55,325 bases of DNA from an uncultured Spirochaetales bacterium (GCA_937991975.1 CALKLC010000146.1:1-55325); one strand, 5' to 3'; counted from the stretch's first letter, positions 38,600 through 55,304 are shown. The notes: a model not told the origin generated them from the letters alone. Numbers and translations are program-made.

Positions 38600-38684
38600 G
38601 GAGAGGTGTCCGAGTGGTCGAAGGAGGCGGTCTTGAAAACCGTTGAGCCGCAAGGCTCCGTGGGTTCGAATCCCACCTTCTCCG
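38600..38684 (+). tRNA. tRNA-Ser (anticodon UGA)
   Basis: Hand fold: acceptor GGAGAGG/CTTCTCC, anticodon loop CTTGAAA, long variable arm, T-loop GGTTCGAATCC. Confidence 0.9.
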
Positions 38685-38698
38685 AGGTATTGGACATT

Positions 38699-38786
<88 letters not shown>

Positions 38787-38789
38787 GAT

Positions 38790-38863
38790 GTGCCCATAGC
38801 TCAGCTGGATAGAGTATCAGATTGCGGATCTGATGGTCGGAGGTTCGAATCCTCTTGGGCACG
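38790..38863 (+). tRNA. tRNA-Arg (anticodon GCG)
   Basis: Hand fold: acceptor GTGCCCA/TGGGCAC, D-arm GCTCAGCTGGATAGAGT, anticodon stem TCAGA/TCTGA with loop TTGCGGA (34-36 = GCG), T-loop GGTTCGAATCC. Confidence 0.85.
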
Positions 38864-38869
38864 TGAACT

Positions 38870-38958
38870 GGAGAGATGCGAGAGCGGTCGAATCGGGCGG
38901 ACTCGAAATCCGTTGTACCGCGCAAGCGGTACCGAGGGTTCGAATCCCTCTCTCTCCG
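38870..38958 (+). tRNA. tRNA-Ser (anticodon CGA)
   Basis: Hand fold: acceptor GGAGAGA, anticodon loop CTCGAAA, long variable arm, T-loop GGTTCGAATCC. Confidence 0.9.
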
Positions 38959-39245
38959 TTCCTCTCGCAGCTCCAGTGGGTGCGAAAGCATACCGCTGGG
39001 GTATCCTGTTTATGTGAACGCGCATCACCTGGTTGTCCAGTGGATGTGAAACGGACGCCGAAGTGTAAAGGCACGCTGCCGGATTGTCCAGTTTATGCGA
39101 ACGTGCGCCGTAGCGTAAACGTAGGGTATGCAATAGGTGAAGCGTTTTGTGGGTTTACAATATGCGCACGCTGCTGCGTAAACCCAAGGTTGCGGTAGGG
39201 GTGTATGGTGGGTTTTTGATAAATGCATCTGGGAACGCTCGAATT

Positions 39246-39333
39246 GGAGAGATGTCCGAGAGGCCGAAGGAGCACGCTTGGAAAGTGTGTGTACCCTAAC
39301 CGGGTACCGAGGGTTCGAATCCCTCTCTCTCCG
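39246..39333 (+). tRNA. tRNA-Ser (anticodon GGA)
   Basis: Hand fold: acceptor GGAGAGA, anticodon loop TTGGAAA, long variable arm. The 3' half is identical to tRNA-Ser(CGA). Confidence 0.9.
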
Positions 39334-39338
39334 GATTA

Positions 39339-39461
39339 CCCCTTTAGTACTTAGGTTAGGTTCCGTGCAATCTGCTGTCACCCAACCCCGTCAGGCCCGG
39401 AAGGGAGCAGCGGTAAGTGATCAGGGATGTGCCACGGGGTACTTAACCGGTGCTAAGGGGG
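39339..39461 (+). ncRNA. ffs: Signal recognition particle RNA (small, 4.5S-type)
   Basis: Contains GTCAGGCCCGGAAGGGAGCAGC, the conserved domain IV with a GGAA tetraloop. The flanks pair (CCCCTTTAGTAC... with ...GTGCTAAGGGG) into one long hairpin, followed by GTTTTT. Classic position upstream of dnaX-ybaB-recR. Ends approximate. Confidence 0.75.
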
Positions 39462-50283: not shown

Positions 50284-50312
50284 TTGAATCTTACCTGCAT
50301 GTTTGTTATCAT
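50284..50312 (+). promoter_or_regulatory. Sigma-70-like promoter TTGAAT-17 nt-TATCAT
   Basis: TTGAAT 50284-50289, 17-nt spacer, TATCAT 50307-50312. Lies about 10-15 nt upstream of the riboswitch aptamer. Confidence 0.5.
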
Positions 50313-50321
50313 ATTGGCTAA

Positions 50322-50410
50322 TCGAGAGAGGCGATGAGGCTCGCCTTGAACCGCCGGTTTGGCTGATAGCCTCTATGAAGGGACTCCCCTCCATAGAGGC
50401 TTTTTTCTTT
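50322..50410 (+). promoter_or_regulatory. Fluoride riboswitch (crcB motif) with terminator expression platform
   Basis: GGCGAUGAGGCUCGCC-UUGAAC-CGCCGGUUUGGC-UGAUA-GCCUCUAU matches the conserved fluoride aptamer: P1 50330-33/50342-45 and pseudoknot GAGGCU 50336-41 with AGCCUC 50368-73. The 3' strand is shared with the terminator. Confidence 0.88.
50368..50410 (+). terminator. Rho-independent terminator (riboswitch expression platform)
   Basis: Stem AGCCTCTATG (50368-77) / CATAGAGGCT (50392-50401), followed by TTTTTTCTTT. Confidence 0.85.
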
Positions 50411-50427
50411 GGGGGGGCGTTAAGGGG

Positions 50428-50473
50428 AACGCCTAATAACAATAGGAAGAAACGCCCAATAACAATAGGAAGA
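50428..50473 (+). repeat. Tandem 23-bp direct repeat AACGCC(T/C)AATAACAATAGGAAGA x2
   Basis: 50428-50450 and 50451-50473 differ at one position. The repeat ends 17 nt before the ATG at 50491. Confidence 0.9.
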
Positions 50474-50490: not shown

Positions 50491-52029
50491 ATGAATAATT
50501 TTCCCACTGTAAGCATCCTGTTTGATAAAGATGTTTCCCTGGCACAGGCGGTTGCACAACCGGATTGCTTGCATGATCTGAATCTGGACCAACTTATAGA
50601 TGCTATTACCGGGCCAAAGCAGGAGTACGATTTAACCCCCTTTTTCTACACCCCTCTGCGGGATCCAGATACTGTGCGATATCGGCAGGAAGTGATGCGG
50701 GATCTGGAGAATGAATCTCTCATAGAGCACATCAAGGCTTTCTCGAAGGGAATGAGCACTGTCCGACGCTACCTGGGTATGGCGGAAAAATTGGACTTCG
50801 AGTATCACAGGATGGGCTGGACACTGGAGGCAGCCCTGGTTTACTGCGATACAGTAATGGCAGTATCCCCTCATCTGGCGACTGACTCCTTACGATCCCG
50901 CGGGTTAAGAGCGATCCGGGAGTACGTGGAGCAGTATGTTTCTTCACCTTCATTCCAGGTATTGGCATCCGAAGCGCGGCAGGTGAAGCAAGCTTTGGAA
51001 GAGGTGCAGTACTCTGTGATCATCGAGGGCGGCAAGTTCCGCGTAAAGCGGTACGAGGGCGAGGCAGAGTACGGCATAGAGGTGGAGAAAACTTTCGAGA
51101 AATTCAAACAAACCGACGCACAGGATTACCTGAAGCGGATCCCTGAAAGAAGCGGGATGAGCCACATCGAAGCAAAGATTCTCGAGTTCGTCGTTAAATT
51201 GTTCCCGGAACCCTTTGCCGCATTGACTCACTTCTGTAACCAGCGTTTCCCCTTCATCGACGAAAGGATTCAAACTTTTGACCGGGAGATCCAGTTTTAT
51301 CTGGCCTATCTGGATTTCATAGCCGATCTCAAGCGTCGGGGGCTGCCTTTCTGCTATCCCCAACTAAGCGCCGCAAGCAAGGAGATCTACCTGTACGACG
51401 GCTTTGACCTGGCTCTTGCCCATGCCCACCGGTATAACCAGCAGCCTATAGTTCTGAATGACTTTTCTCTACAGGATTCGAAGCGCATCCTTGTCGTTAC
51501 TGGACCCAATCAGGGGGGGAAGACCACGTTTGCCCGTATGTTTGGACAGGTCCATTACCTTGCAAGCCTTGGCTGTCCTGTGCCGGGACGGGAAGCGCGC
51601 CTTTTCCTTTTCGACCGAATCTTTACTCATTTTGAACGCGCAGAGGATGTTCGTACCCTGCGCAGCAAACTGGAAGATGACCTGTTCCGCATGCACTCCA
51701 TGCTCGCTCAGGCCACTCCTGAAAGCCTCTTTATCTTGAACGAGATTTTTACTTCTACGACAGTTCACGACGCCCTCCTGCTGAGTAGAGAGATCATGGC
51801 ACAGCTGACCGATAGGGATGTGCTGGCCTGCTGGGTCACCTTTCTGGACGAACTGGCTTCGCTGAATGAGAAAACCGTCAGCATGGTCGCTTTGGTCGAT
51901 CCAGAAGACCCTGCCAGACGCACCTTCAAGGTCGTACGGATGCCGGCCAACGGACTTGCTTACGCTATGTCGCTAGCCCGCAAATACCGCCTGACCCGTG
52001 AGCAACTCAAGGAACGGTTATCACCATGA
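50491..52029 (+). CDS. MutS-family ATPase paralog A (domain V only; no mismatch-binding or Smr domain)
   Basis: 512 aa. Walker A VVTGPNQGGKTTFARM, LRSKLEDDLFRM, Walker-B region SLFILNEIFTSTT, FLDEL. The N-terminal helical region has TPLRDPDTVRYRQEVMRDL, like the MutS core. Confidence 0.8.
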   Translation: MNNFPTVSILFDKDVSLAQAVAQPDCLHDLNLDQLIDAITGPKQEYDLTPFFYTPLRDPDTVRYRQEVMRDLENESLIEHIKAFSKGMSTVRRYLGMAEKLDFEYHRMGWTLEAALVYCDTVMAVSPHLATDSLRSRGLRAIREYVEQYVSSPSFQVLASEARQVKQALEEVQYSVIIEGGKFRVKRYEGEAEYGIEVEKTFEKFKQTDAQDYLKRIPERSGMSHIEAKILEFVVKLFPEPFAALTHFCNQRFPFIDERIQTFDREIQFYLAYLDFIADLKRRGLPFCYPQLSAASKEIYLYDGFDLALAHAHRYNQQPIVLNDFSLQDSKRILVVTGPNQGGKTTFARMFGQVHYLASLGCPVPGREARLFLFDRIFTHFERAEDVRTLRSKLEDDLFRMHSMLAQATPESLFILNEIFTSTTVHDALLLSREIMAQLTDRDVLACWVTFLDELASLNEKTVSMVALVDPEDPARRTFKVVRMPANGLAYAMSLARKYRLTREQLKERLSP

Positions 52030-53549
52030 AAGTGTTTCTCCTCTACCCTGACAGGGATTTCGATCTGTCAAAGCCATTGCCGCCCCTCATCGAGGCTCTG
52101 GAAAGAGATCTGGGGCTCGATATTCTTCTCAACACCATGGCTCAGGGTGATCGATTCCTCTACCAGGTGGCGCGGCAGGTTCTGCTGTCGATCCAGGACG
52201 ACTCTGCAGTGATTGCCTACCGTCAGGGAATTCTAGAGGATTGCCTCCAGCATGCCGGGGTTGTCCAGCAGCTCTACCGGATCCCCCTGGAGTTCCTGGA
52301 ACGGAAGCGCAAATACTTGCTGTGGATCTCCCTACGGCATTCCAGCCCCGGTTCTCTCCTCAGTAGTGCGCGGCAATTAATTGAATCCTCCCTCGACCTG
52401 CTGCGGCAGCTGCGTCAAATTGCCGACCAGAACTGTAAAACATTTGCTTCGGAAGGATTCCGTCGGTTCTTTCGCATGATTCAGCAGGAACTGAACGACG
52501 CATACCTGGAAGTTGTGAAAGGGCACATCCAGATGCTCCGTTTTCCCCACGGTGTCCTGCTCAGGGTGCGTTTAGGTAAGGGGAACGAGGGAGTGGATTA
52601 TGAGCTCTGCAAGCCCAACGGCGCGAACAAGAACTGGCTGCAACGACTTTTCACCTCCCGTTCACATAGCTATTCCTATACCCTTCACCCCCGTGATGAA
52701 GCTGGGGCCCGTATCTTGAGCGAGTTGCGTGACAGGGGGCTTGCCCTGACAGCGAATGCAGTTGCCCAGGCCGCCGAACATATCGAGAGCTTCCTCCATA
52801 TCTTGCAATGGGAACTGGCATTCTACATGGGATGTATGAATCTTTCCAATCAACTGACCGCGTGGGGTTTCCCTGTGGCATTCCCCCAGGTTGCACCCAC
52901 CTCCGAGCATGGGTTTTCCTGCAGGGGATTGTACGATGTCTCCCTGGCGCTAACGATGGGAAATGGTGTCGTAGGGAACGATGTGTCCGCCGAGGGAAAA
53001 CCGCTGGTGCTTATTACAGGGCCGAACAAGGGCGGCAAGACAACCTTTCTCCGTAGTGTGGGGCAAGCGTATCTGATGATGCAGAGCGGGATGTTTGTGC
53101 CGGCAGAAAGTCTCTCCGCCAGCCTGTGCTCGGGCCTTTTCACGCACTTCAAACGGGAGGAGGATGGGACAATGGAGAGCGGCAAATTCGATGAGGAACT
53201 CAGCCGCATGAGTACGATCGTTGATCATCTCACCCCACATGCGATACTCCTGCTGAACGAATCCTTTGCCGCCACCAACGAGCGAGAAGGTTCGCAAATT
53301 GCCTGGCAGATCGTCGATGCCCTTCTCGAAAAGGGCCTCCGGGTGTTCTATGTTACCCATCTCTACGAGTTTGCCCGCCGCTGTTACGAAGAGGAAGGAG
53401 AAAAAATCCTTTTCCTCCGTGCCGAAAGGCTACCGGATGGAACCCGTACCTTCCGACTCAAGGAAGCCCACCCAATGGAGACAAGCCATGGGATGGACCT
53501 GTACAGGAGGATATTTGGCGTCGAACGACAGAAGAGTATGGCCGGATGA
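52026..53549 (+). CDS. MutS-family ATPase paralog B (domain V only; no mismatch-binding or Smr domain)
   Basis: 507 aa. ATGA overlap with paralog A. Walker A LITGPNKGGKTTFLRS, SGKFDEELSRM, Walker-B region ILLLNESFAATNEREG, VTHLYEFA. Confidence 0.8.
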   Translation: MKVFLLYPDRDFDLSKPLPPLIEALERDLGLDILLNTMAQGDRFLYQVARQVLLSIQDDSAVIAYRQGILEDCLQHAGVVQQLYRIPLEFLERKRKYLLWISLRHSSPGSLLSSARQLIESSLDLLRQLRQIADQNCKTFASEGFRRFFRMIQQELNDAYLEVVKGHIQMLRFPHGVLLRVRLGKGNEGVDYELCKPNGANKNWLQRLFTSRSHSYSYTLHPRDEAGARILSELRDRGLALTANAVAQAAEHIESFLHILQWELAFYMGCMNLSNQLTAWGFPVAFPQVAPTSEHGFSCRGLYDVSLALTMGNGVVGNDVSAEGKPLVLITGPNKGGKTTFLRSVGQAYLMMQSGMFVPAESLSASLCSGLFTHFKREEDGTMESGKFDEELSRMSTIVDHLTPHAILLLNESFAATNEREGSQIAWQIVDALLEKGLRVFYVTHLYEFARRCYEEEGEKILFLRAERLPDGTRTFRLKEAHPMETSHGMDLYRRIFGVERQKSMAG

Positions 53550-53702: not shown

Positions 53703-55304
53703 GTGGTAAAACAGAAGAAAAATATCAAGAAACACAAAGATAAAAACAAAACCAGCGGCGCAACCATCGGCTATGAAGCCGAACTATGGGACATGGCGGA
53801 TGCACTACGAGGCAGTATGGACGCTGCTGAATATAAGCATGTTGTCCTTGGTCTACTGTTCCTAAAGTATGTTTCTGATTCATTTGAAGAACAGCATAAA
53901 AAACTTGAGGCTGAACGGGAAAAGGGTGCAGACCCTGAAGACCCGGACGAGTACCTTGCAGAGAATATCTTTTGGGTGCCACAGGAAGCACGTTGGGGTT
54001 ACTTGAAGGCAAATGCGAAACAGCCGAACATCGGCCAGTTGGTGGACGATGCTATGGCAGCTATTGAAAGAGATAACCCCGCACTCAAGGGAGTCCTCCC
54101 TAATGATTACGCCCGTCCGGCACTGGATAAAACGCGGTTGGGTCAGCTGGTAGACTTGATCAGTAATATTCAGGTGGGGAACAAGGAAAGCCGATCGAAA
54201 GACATACTCGGCAGAGTTTATGAGTACTTTCTCTCGAAATTTGCCAGTGCGGAAGGGAAAAAAGGAGGGGAATTCTATACGCCCCGTTGTGTGGTTAAGC
54301 TCCTGGTTGAAATGATCGAACCTTACCGAGGGAGGGTATACGACCCCTGCTGCGGTTCATCGGGGATGTTCGTTCAATCAGTGGAATTCATCCGTGCACA
54401 TGCAAGCGGCAATGGGAACGGTGGAGGAGTCCGAGCTGATATCTCTATTTATGGTCAGGAATTGAACTATACCACCTGGAAACTCGCCCGGATGAACCTT
54501 GCGATTCGCGGTATCGATGCTAAGATTGCCCACGGTGACACATTCCATAATGATTGTTTCCCGGATCTTAAAGCTGATTTTATCCTGGCCAATCCTCCCT
54601 TTAACGTATCGAATTGGGGTGGCGATCTTTTACGAAATGACAAGCGGTGGAAGTACGGCGTGCCTCCTGTGGGAAATGCGAACTTTGCCTGGGTCCAGCA
54701 CATCATCTATCATCTAGCGCCAGGGGGTATGGCAGGATTTGTACTGGCTAATGGTTCCATGTCTTCAAATCAATCGGGAGAGGGCGAGATCCGTAAAAAT
54801 ATAATCGAAGCTGATCTGGTGGACTGTATGGTAGCTTTGCCTGGACAACTCTTCTACTCTACTCAGATTCCTGCTTGCCTGTGGTTTCTTTCTCGAGATC
54901 GTAAAAAGGGAAAGTTCCGCGAGCGGAGTGGCGAGGTGCTATTTATTGACGCTAGGAAAATGGGCCGGCTGGCTGATCGCATCCATCGTGAGTTGACAGA
55001 AGAGGACATTACCCGGATAGCCAATACATACCATGCTTGGCGCGGTGAGGCAATAGGCGGATCCCAGCGCACAGAATATAAGGACGTCCCCGGATTTTGT
55101 AAGAGCGCTACGCTGGATGAAATCCGCAAAAATGGTTACGTGCTTACACCAGGGAGGTATGTTGGCGTAGCCCCACAGGATGAGGACGACGAGCCGTTCG
55201 AGGAAAAAATGCACCGGCTTGTCGCCCAATTGCGCGAGCAACAGGCCGAGGCGGCACGGCTGGATGAAGCGATTGGGAGGAATTTGAAGGAATTAGGCTT
55301 CTAA
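53703..55304 (+). CDS. hsdM: Type I restriction-modification system, DNA methylase subunit
   Basis: 533 aa, GTG start after GGAAGGTGA. The HsdM N-domain ([32 protein letters not shown]), motif [11 protein letters not shown] and motif IV LANPPFN. An ATG at 55306 starts a further ORF (probably hsdS), truncated by the window end. Confidence 0.92.

Follow-up and report, generated by a model that had tools for sequence, protein, structure and literature searches.

Why should two short MutS-like ATPases stand directly behind a fluoride riboswitch, and next to a gene of a type I restriction-modification (R-M) system? The question is raised by a locus at 50491–53549 of a 55,325 nt stretch of DNA from an uncultured Spirochaetales bacterium (GCA_937991975.1, CALKLC010000146.1:1-55325); this full stretch is referred to below as the window. 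A preliminary description of the window had presented the locus as a translationally coupled pair of truncated MutS-family ATPases and had offered two readings, a fluoride-stress system and a module of a defence island. We analysed the two proteins by profile searches and structure prediction, and surveyed a sample of 80 genome loci from many phyla that were fetched with a profile of the first protein (A). The pair fits the published description of MutS4A and MutS4B, and across genomes it belongs to a fluoride-response regulon. The best explanation as a whole, from a fluoride-inducible MutS4A–MutS4B operon to the chemistry of the ATP sites and the function of the heterodimer, is given a probability of roughly 60%.

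The open reading frame (ORF) coordinates bear out two genes that share an ATGA and encode proteins of 512 (A) and 507 (B) residues (Table 1). Each protein has a match to MutS_V (PF00488) alone in Pfam, at residues 335–464 of A and 328–490 of B, with no Pfam match to MutS_I, MutS_II or Smr in either, and both end ∼45–60 residues past the ATPase core. The structure of each protein was predicted singly using AlphaFold2, with a mean predicted local distance difference test score of 80.7 for A and 85.0 for B. Foldseek aligned ∼480–590 columns of each model to chains of MutS, MSH2, MSH3 and MSH6 and to the MutS2 core, that of T. thermophilus (7vuf and 7vuk) matching A with target-normalised TM-scores of 0.63–0.67; the B. 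subtilis MutS2–disome complex 7qv3 was also among the fold matches. The predicted architecture, with fold matches that start at domain III, consists of a core/lever (domain III), a small clamp (domain IV) and an ATPase (domain V), with no mismatch-recognition, connector, Smr or KOW domain in either model. The clamp is modelled as a β-hairpin and a low-confidence loop (residues ∼174–224). The Pfam and fold matches thus agree with the earlier account of MutS core-like helices and a domain V, in the absence of domain I and of Smr. A and B are paralogous over 454 columns, nearly their full length, in a profile–profile alignment by hhalign (99.9% probability, 24% identity).

The term 'truncated' did not stand, as both proteins are full-length members of a distinct and strongly conserved subfamily. 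Full-length homologues of the same size, with identities of 60–82%, are found in Chloroflexota, Planctomycetota, Desulfobacterota, Parcubacteria and other groups, and the best named homologues come from Anaerolineales and Thermoflexus. A full HMMER scan gave 1103 representative clusters (50% identity) at E ≤ 1e-30. Across phyla the whole length is highly conserved, at ∼50% for the N-terminal half and ∼65% for the ATPase domain. The NCBIfam scores for A and B, respectively, are 93.6 and 73.5 bits for the MutS1 model NF003810 (cut-off 480), 87 and 63 bits for the MutS1 model TIGR01070 (cut-off 641.7), 60.3 and 75.6 bits for the MutS2 model TIGR01069 (cut-off 400), which is the top NCBIfam match for B, and 52.4 and 67.9 bits for the KamC model NF052383 (cut-off 300; E = 4e-14 and 7e-19). 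Scores of 52–94 bits against cut-offs of 300–642 place A and B outside MutS1, MutS2 and KamC.

The published family that the pair does fit is MutS4, in which only the MutSac domain is recognisable and for which adjacent copies were named MutS4A and MutS4B, the stop codon of MutS4A overlapping the start codon of MutS4B (Lin, Nei and Ma, 2007; PMC2190696). The window pair has the same ATPase-only recognisability, the same A-then-B order and the same stop/start overlap and, assigned by this match, appears to be an ordinary MutS4A/MutS4B member. Lin et al. (2007) reported MutS4 as scattered in distant bacteria, including Thermoanaerobacter, and in a few archaea, its function being unstudied. Our survey has in common with theirs a patchy spread like that of horizontal transfer, as well as Thermoanaerobacter itself, with close homologues in Thermoanaerobacter sp. 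and Thermoanaerobacterium (loci L017 and L068). Absent from their paper are three features described below: the fluoride-riboswitch context, an invariant Asn-Glu in Walker B and an H-loop that has Phe in A but His in B.

Searching with the profile of A, the A–B pair was found in at least 592 species-level genomes. A homologue of B follows A directly in all of the 80 loci surveyed, with a 4 nt overlap in 72 of 78 loci and a 1 nt overlap in three more, and a Shine-Dalgarno sequence, GGAG(CG), lies at a fixed distance 5′ of the overlap within the conserved Lys-Glu-Arg codons of A. Translational coupling that is so deeply conserved is best explained by an obligate partnership, and we infer that A and B form an obligate MutS-type heterodimer. 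The ATGA overlap and the internal Shine-Dalgarno sequence would couple the translation of the two subunits, which, made together, would yield a heterodimer of core/lever, clamp and ABC-ATPase (III–IV–V) only. One protein of 1026 residues (P0263) combines an A-type half with a B-type half, the latter 51% identical to B of the window; it may be a true fusion or the product of a frameshift where A and B meet at the ATGA, and it informs on the A–B partnership only. Another (P0209, 634 residues) was dropped as a domain-fusion clue since it looks like an internal duplication and is probably an assembly artefact.

Upstream of the pair, the fluoride riboswitch aptamer RF01734 (crcB motif) is matched over the full model (1–64) by Rfam cmscan, scoring 44.5 bits (E = 4e-9) where the gathering threshold is 34, and a promoter-like site ends nine bases 5′ of it. 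The expression platform contains an intrinsic terminator with arms at 50368–50382 and 50387–50401 that are 93% complementary; its stem (AGCCUCUAUGAAGGG and CCCUCCAUAGAGGCU) is followed by the U-run UUUUUUCUUU, and the same hairpin appears in the minimum-free-energy (MFE) fold. In the aptamer, the 3′ strand of the pseudoknot shares bases with the 5′ arm of this terminator. As read from the sequence, the leader has the layout of an ON switch by antitermination, and Weinberg et al. (2010; PMC2864571) give the same terminator logic in general terms for the crcB motif. In the absence of fluoride the leader RNA would fold the terminator and transcription would stop, while in its presence the aptamer pseudoknot would sequester the 5′ arm and RNA polymerase would read into both genes; the pair is probably under such terminator/antiterminator regulation. 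The rest of the leader, from the terminator to the MutS4A start, contains two copies of a 23 nt unit, AACGCCYAATAACAATAGGAAGA, each of which has a Shine-Dalgarno-like AGGAAGA.

The survey shows how far this arrangement extends beyond the window. Among 13 test loci, RF01734 was found by Rfam directly 5′ of A in most, with up to four copies per locus. A covariance model (R1) was built from these Rfam hits, based on a pseudoknot helix of 6 bp chosen by RNAalifold and not on the nested P1 and P3 helices. The alignment of R1 includes the window aptamer, which is among its top matches. R1 recovered all 16 of the Rfam fluoride matches in the test loci, plus a few more, and gave 132 matches in ∼1 Mb of loci. 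The position of the riboswitch could be assessed in 77 loci with enough upstream sequence. It lies within 300 nt upstream of A on the same strand in 45 loci (43 at ≥32 bits; two of the 45 depend on hits below ∼27 bits, which are uncertain), at 300–1000 nt in seven and, also on this strand but beyond intervening genes, at a greater distance in 14; 66 loci in all thus have a riboswitch upstream of A on the same strand. The remaining 11 have none at the threshold used; even there, fluoride-type neighbours occur on the strand of the pair, and L022, for example, has, all on one strand, genes for a dynamin-like GTPase, enolase, a major facilitator superfamily (MFS) transporter, CrcB and a CBS protein followed by A and B.

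The neighbouring families, defined by clustering and Pfam annotation in the 80 loci, are led by a dynamin-like GTPase with a DUF6062 tail (27 loci), enolase (18), an MFS transporter (15) and a CBS/DUF190 protein (15). They are followed by a 145-residue protein with no Pfam match (13), CrcB (11), an Na+/H+ antiporter (10), a His_Phos_1 protein of the phosphoglycerate mutase type (9), Mrp/Nuo-like hydrogenlyase subunits (9) and a universal stress protein (USP; 8). The neighbourhood survey proposed in the preliminary description thus returned invariable pairs, mostly with riboswitches and fluoride genes, and hsdM in none of the 80 loci. The fluoride-stress reading is strongly supported in the sense of regulon membership, since in the 80 loci the pair nearly always lies behind a riboswitch or among riboswitch-controlled fluoride genes; of the loci with no riboswitch within 300 nt, most have the pair as part of a larger fluoride island. 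The pair also occurs on 45 plasmids. On an IncFIB plasmid of K. pneumoniae (NZ_CP058867.1; locus L081, 77.8–92.4 kb), a riboswitch is followed by genes for a cation:proton antiporter, a USP, MutS4A and MutS4B, beside which lie genes for a P-type ATPase and a DHHA2-domain protein (pyrophosphatase-type, family-II-type) as well as crcB, gpmA, eno and uspA; a second riboswitch match is followed by genes for a CLC-family channel and a DUF190 protein. These data show the pair to be a core, horizontally mobile part of the fluoride-response regulon and a near-obligate component of fluoride islands.

A link between the crcB motif and mutS is not new. The preliminary description had stated that early surveys listed mutS-like genes behind this motif, and Weinberg et al. 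(2010; PMC2864571) do list mutS, with DNA repair as its role. As in the window, these genes have a fluoride riboswitch and an overlapping terminator in the 5′ untranslated region of a mutS-like gene; the text of the survey, as far as consulted, makes no mention of the MutS4A/B pair, of a missing domain I or of unusual ATP sites, and MutS is not mentioned in the first 200 of the 438 supplementary files. A fluoride-resistance island of E. cloacae FRM (2017; PMC5533749) confers very high resistance with eno, ppaC and gpmA and has no MutS4. The riboswitch-controlled gene set of this experimentally studied island is shared by the Klebsiella plasmid and by many of the 80 MutS4A/B loci, whereas the window has the pair and no other fluoride gene in its 55 kb (tblastn, with representatives of 12 neighbour families). 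Behind its own riboswitch, the pair of the window stands alone. A listing of mutS behind the fluoride riboswitch was reportedly also given by Baker et al. in Science in 2012.

What distinguishes the family is its ATP sites, which were compared in alignments of sequences taken from the genome loci, 72 of the A type and 73 of the B type. Walker A, canonically GxxxxGK(S/T), is intact in both families (GPNQGGKTT in A and usually GANQGGKST in B) and reads GPNQGGKTT (A 338–346) and GPNKGGKTT (B 332–340) in the window. The Asp of Walker B is Asn in all 72 A-type and all 73 B-type sequences, and the following Glu is kept in 72 of 72 and 72 of 73, respectively; the corresponding window sequences are FILNEIF (Asn417-Glu418 of A) and LLLNESF (Asn411-Glu412 of B). 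HMMER alignment to PDB chains places Asn417 and Phe451 of A on Asp693 and His728 of E. coli MutS, and Asn411 and His445 of B on the Asp and His of Thermus MutS2, so that the Asn with retained Glu noticed earlier is confirmed in both ORFs against MutS and MutS2. It had been allowed at that stage that Asn-Glu might simply be the norm of a characterised subfamily; the norm it is, but the subfamily is uncharacterised. The canonical GRGT after Walker B is F(T/S)ST in the A family and FAAT in the B family, a change that removes the equivalent of Arg697. The signature Ser is Gly in 71 of 72 A-type sequences (window A has Ser392) and in all 73 of the B type. The His of the H-loop is Phe in every A-type sequence (VTF; Phe451 in the window) and is kept in every B-type sequence (VTH; His445). 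This constant difference at the H-loop implies an asymmetric heterodimer; judging from these motifs, the A site appears degenerate and the two composite ATP sites unequal, an asymmetry that resembles ABC heterodimers with one degenerate site.

A guide to the consequences is the D693N variant of E. coli MutS, which likewise has Asn at the Walker-B Asp with the catalytic Glu kept (Lebbink et al., 2010). Its crystal structure (PDB 3k0s) has an empty metal pocket; the Kd for ATP rises from 0.034 to 0.5 µM (more than ten-fold weaker binding) and kcat depends strongly on the Mg2+ concentration. D693N is a laboratory mutation that impairs mismatch repair, whereas the Asn of MutS4A/B is the invariant natural state of both subunits and is accompanied, unlike in D693N, by the altered GRGT and the change of the signature Ser to Gly. 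By analogy, MutS4A/B would coordinate Mg2+ weakly, and the ATPase would be slow, Mg-dependent and switch-like and not a fast motor. The suggestion that an altered metal ligand is relevant to fluoride stress is plausible on the same grounds; the Asn sites might make the heterodimer less prone to trapping by ADP–magnesium-fluoride complexes.

A bolder form of this idea, which we consider quite improbable, is that the Asn Walker B, the Gly signature and the His-less site evolved to weaken Mg2+ occupancy and yield a fluoride-hardened ATP switch. Transition-state mimics formed by ADP with magnesium fluoride or aluminium fluoride could then not lock MutS4A/B, and the heterodimer would clamp DNA or stalled ribosomes, or strip Mg-F-phosphate, in a covering role while ordinary NTPases are trapped. 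If true, this would be the first NTPase active site adapted to resist poisoning by metal fluorides.

As to molecular function, the reading we prefer, at somewhat below even odds, is a clamp on DNA that is gated by ATP and probably acts on intermediates of recombination or repair. Such a clamp would keep genome maintenance going while fluoride poisons Mg-dependent phosphoryl-transfer enzymes. The preliminary description, to which no assigned function was known, was nearly right: function was unstudied when the family was named in 2007, and a literature search combining the fluoride riboswitch with MutS or mismatch repair returned nothing on function, but a 2017 paper reports a modest effect on recombination. 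Kim et al. (2017; PMC5742357) described an island of M. yongonense (OEM_51290-51410) with enolase, subunits of NADH dehydrogenase and hydrogenase, and MutS4A/B. When the M. yongonense MutS4 operon was integrated in M. smegmatis, 55 rather than 22 rifampicin-resistant colonies were obtained, true recombinants made up 75% rather than 31% of the sequenced colonies and the tracts were longer; the operon thus raised homeologous recombination, and fluoride is nowhere considered. The result is weak direct evidence for an action of MutS4 on DNA. The clamp region of B is basic, with a mean net charge of +4.6. The layout of the M. yongonense Type I MutS4 island is that of the fluoride islands in our survey, and an actinomycete locus (L069) shares its context of hydrogenlyase subunits.

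Several observations weigh against this picture. The recombination result comes from one experiment in a heterologous host, with few colonies and no fluoride. The basic clamp of B is a weak sign of DNA binding; the clamp of A is close to neutral, and A and B are each acidic as a whole. MutS-fold ATPases also act on substrates other than DNA, as with MutS2 on collided ribosomes and KamC, which is named a reactivase. Fluoride resistance can also be had without the pair, as the FRM island shows, and 11 of the 77 assessed loci lack a riboswitch at the threshold used. Against a fluoride-tolerant site, altered Mg ligands are not general: the third MutS-like protein of a fluoride operon (L076, described below) keeps a normal Asp-Glu, and the co-occurring dynamin-like GTPase keeps the Asp of DxxG (DTPG, by eye from the sequence). 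These two exceptions rule out the proposal that all fluoride-regulon NTPases have altered Mg ligands.

If not DNA, the substrate could be the ribosome. Fluoride–metal complexes might stall translational GTPases, and MutS4A/B, induced for this reason, would clamp stalled or collided ribosomes, or another RNA–protein complex, and split them using ATP. The III–IV–V architecture without domain I is that of the MutS2 core, also a dimeric ABC-type clamp; the fold matches include the MutS2 core (7vuf) and the disome complex (7qv3) cited above, the MutS2 model is the top NCBIfam match for B, and conservation over the full length across phyla would suit a universally conserved partner. The likeness of fold to MutS1/MSH chains is, however, equal to that to MutS2, and the MutS2 cut-off is far off (75.6 against 400 bits). 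MutS2 forms homodimers, carries KOW and Smr domains at its C-terminus and keeps the canonical Asp-Glu in Walker B, whereas the MutS4 pair, a presumed heterodimer, has neither of these domains and no nuclease domain, and has Asn-Glu twice and one degenerate H-loop. No ribosome-related gene recurs in the 80 neighbourhoods and the sole experimental report found points to DNA recombination, so that we hold surveillance of translation to be unlikely, if still worth weighing. A role on enzymes is more of a long shot: the heterodimer would use ATP to open Mg-enzymes poisoned by fluoride, such as enolase, phosphoglycerate mutase or pyrophosphatase, and release the Mg-F-phosphate complex, in analogy to KamC, a lysine 5,6-aminomutase reactivase by its NCBI name. 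The KamC model, at 508 positions, has the size of A and B and matches both, and its name places a MutS-V fold in a role that does not involve nucleic acids; enolase is a neighbour in 18 and His_Phos_1 in nine of the 80 loci, and the Klebsiella plasmid carries the pair beside gpmA, eno and a pyrophosphatase gene. Yet the KamC scores (52 and 68 bits against 300) are no higher than those for MutS1 and MutS2, the lead is a database name only and no aminomutase genes were found among the recurrent annotated neighbour families of the 80 loci. Many loci, the window included, have the pair without an enolase nearby, and E. cloacae FRM is very resistant with eno, ppaC and gpmA in the absence of MutS4.

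The reading in which the pair acts with the neighbouring type I R-M system against phages or plasmids draws on the position of hsdM, which starts 154 nt 3′ of ORF B on the same strand, and on the fact that paired ABC-type or SMC-like ATPases are common in defence systems. No terminator was detected between B and hsdM, and read-through from the pair into hsdM could therefore occur; promoter-like sites precede hsdM nevertheless. What decides the matter is the survey, in which no hsdM homologue was found in any of the 80 loci and the neighbours were consistently fluoride-regulon genes. Matches to PADLOC were marginal and at the level of the P-loop (best E = 7e-4 over ∼35 residues), and the upstream genes of the window are housekeeping in nature (dnaX, recR, RF3 and fucU). 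The defence-island module was rejected on the PADLOC scan and the hsdM search and is very improbable; on this contig the R-M gene happens to come next, and its adjacency is coincidental. Hardly credible, finally, are decaying or ordinary MutS1 or MutS2 fragments that came by chance to lie behind a riboswitch. Many homologues are annotated as 'DNA mismatch repair protein MutS' in databases, but the ORFs are intact and 60–82% identical to full-length homologues across phyla, there are 1103 representative clusters at E ≤ 1e-30, gene order, 4 nt overlap and family motifs are conserved in the surveyed loci, and the equivalog cut-offs of MutS1 and MutS2 are not reached; intactness, conservation, invariant order, overlap and motifs together rule such fragments out.

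With the fluoride-inducible MutS4A–MutS4B operon as the favoured reading, what is new can be set apart from what is not. The crcB-motif/mutS link (2010) and the MutS4A/B pair (2007) were already known, and for the window itself the yield is small, namely one more ordinary member of the family, with an R-M adjacency that has no significance. Within the searchable literature, the threads of MutS4 and of riboswitch-linked mutS were never joined; equating the two appears to be new, as do the near-universal fluoride context of MutS4 and the invariant site changes with their A/B asymmetry. As the riboswitch-linked mutS genes fit the published MutS4A/B definition, a vague annotation becomes testable, and a question more than fifteen years old can now be addressed directly. 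Tractable hosts are at hand, since conjugative plasmids with the pair are found in Klebsiella, Enterobacter, Citrobacter and one E. coli strain. Further candidates for the regulon can be drawn from the 80 fluoride islands, above all the dynamin-like GTPase with the DUF6062 tail.

Table 1. Features of the MutS4A/B locus, in window coordinates
Feature	Position	Strand	Basis and remarks
Promoter-like site, TTGAAT, 17 nt, TG-TATCAT	50284..50312	+	Consensus match only, 9/12; extended -10 TG
Fluoride riboswitch aptamer RF01734 (crcB motif)	50321..50382	+	Rfam cmscan
Intrinsic terminator, expression platform	50368..50411	+	Inverted repeat, MFE fold and sequence reading
Two tandem copies of 23 nt unit	50428..50473	+	Repeat search, family D1, 96% identity
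ORF A, MutS4A-type subunit	50491..52029	+	512 aa; ORF calling
ATGA stop/start overlap	52026..52029	+	Shine-Dalgarno-like AGGAA inside the KER codons of A
ORF B, MutS4B-type subunit	52026..53549	+	507 aa; ORF calling
hsdM	53703..55304	same as pair	Pfam N6_Mtase and HsdM_N

Between the riboswitch and hsdM no ORF with homologues was found apart from A and B, in agreement with the earlier statement that the pair are the only genes in this interval. The genes upstream in the window comprise dnaX, recR, RF3, an EamA transporter, a protein that binds cyclic nucleotide monophosphates, a FecR-like protein and fucU. Five tRNA genes and then a small signal recognition particle (SRP) RNA are found at 38600–39451, followed by dnaX and recR. 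The tRNA and SRP RNA genes, dnaX and recR form an ordinary housekeeping context and show the contig to be chromosomal. The order fucU–MutS4A–MutS4B is also present on two short metagenomic contigs.

Other members of the surveyed islands were observed in passing. Complete fluoride islands with MutS4A/B are carried by conjugative IncF-type plasmids of Klebsiella, Enterobacter, Citrobacter and Salmonella, and one of 5426 complete E. coli genomes has such an island; many of the isolates are from wastewater or clinical samples. Three 13 kb loci have six (L043) or five (L018 and L037) riboswitch matches on both strands, each at the head of a different small operon, which makes these islands densely riboswitch-regulated. 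The dynamin-family GTPase (Dynamin_N; representative L064:834-2546) is the commonest neighbour of the MutS4 pair, with 37 genes in its 27 loci (e.g. L008, L015, L021, L024, L036, L059 and L062). Its C-terminal DUF6062 region is rich in CxxC/CxxH and zinc-ribbon-like, and the gene often lies directly behind a fluoride riboswitch of its own. A full-text literature search for fluoride, riboswitch and dynamin found no paper, and the protein has the appearance of a fluoride-regulon member not described before. The ∼145-residue protein without a Pfam match (L026:1745-2182; 13 loci, e.g. L032, L034, L050 and L067) is usually encoded beside enolase, behind a riboswitch, and a small protein with a zinc ribbon and HEAT repeats (L062:3965-4429; seven loci) is encoded beside the enolase or dynamin-like gene. 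The third MutS-like gene mentioned above (L076:4169-5500) belongs to a fluoride operon of Bacteroidales, with the dynamin-like gene on one side and MutS4A on the other. Its product of 443 residues has the motif GPNMAGKTT, FDE as a canonical Walker B and SSH in the H-loop position; fluoride operons have therefore drawn on more than one MutS lineage.

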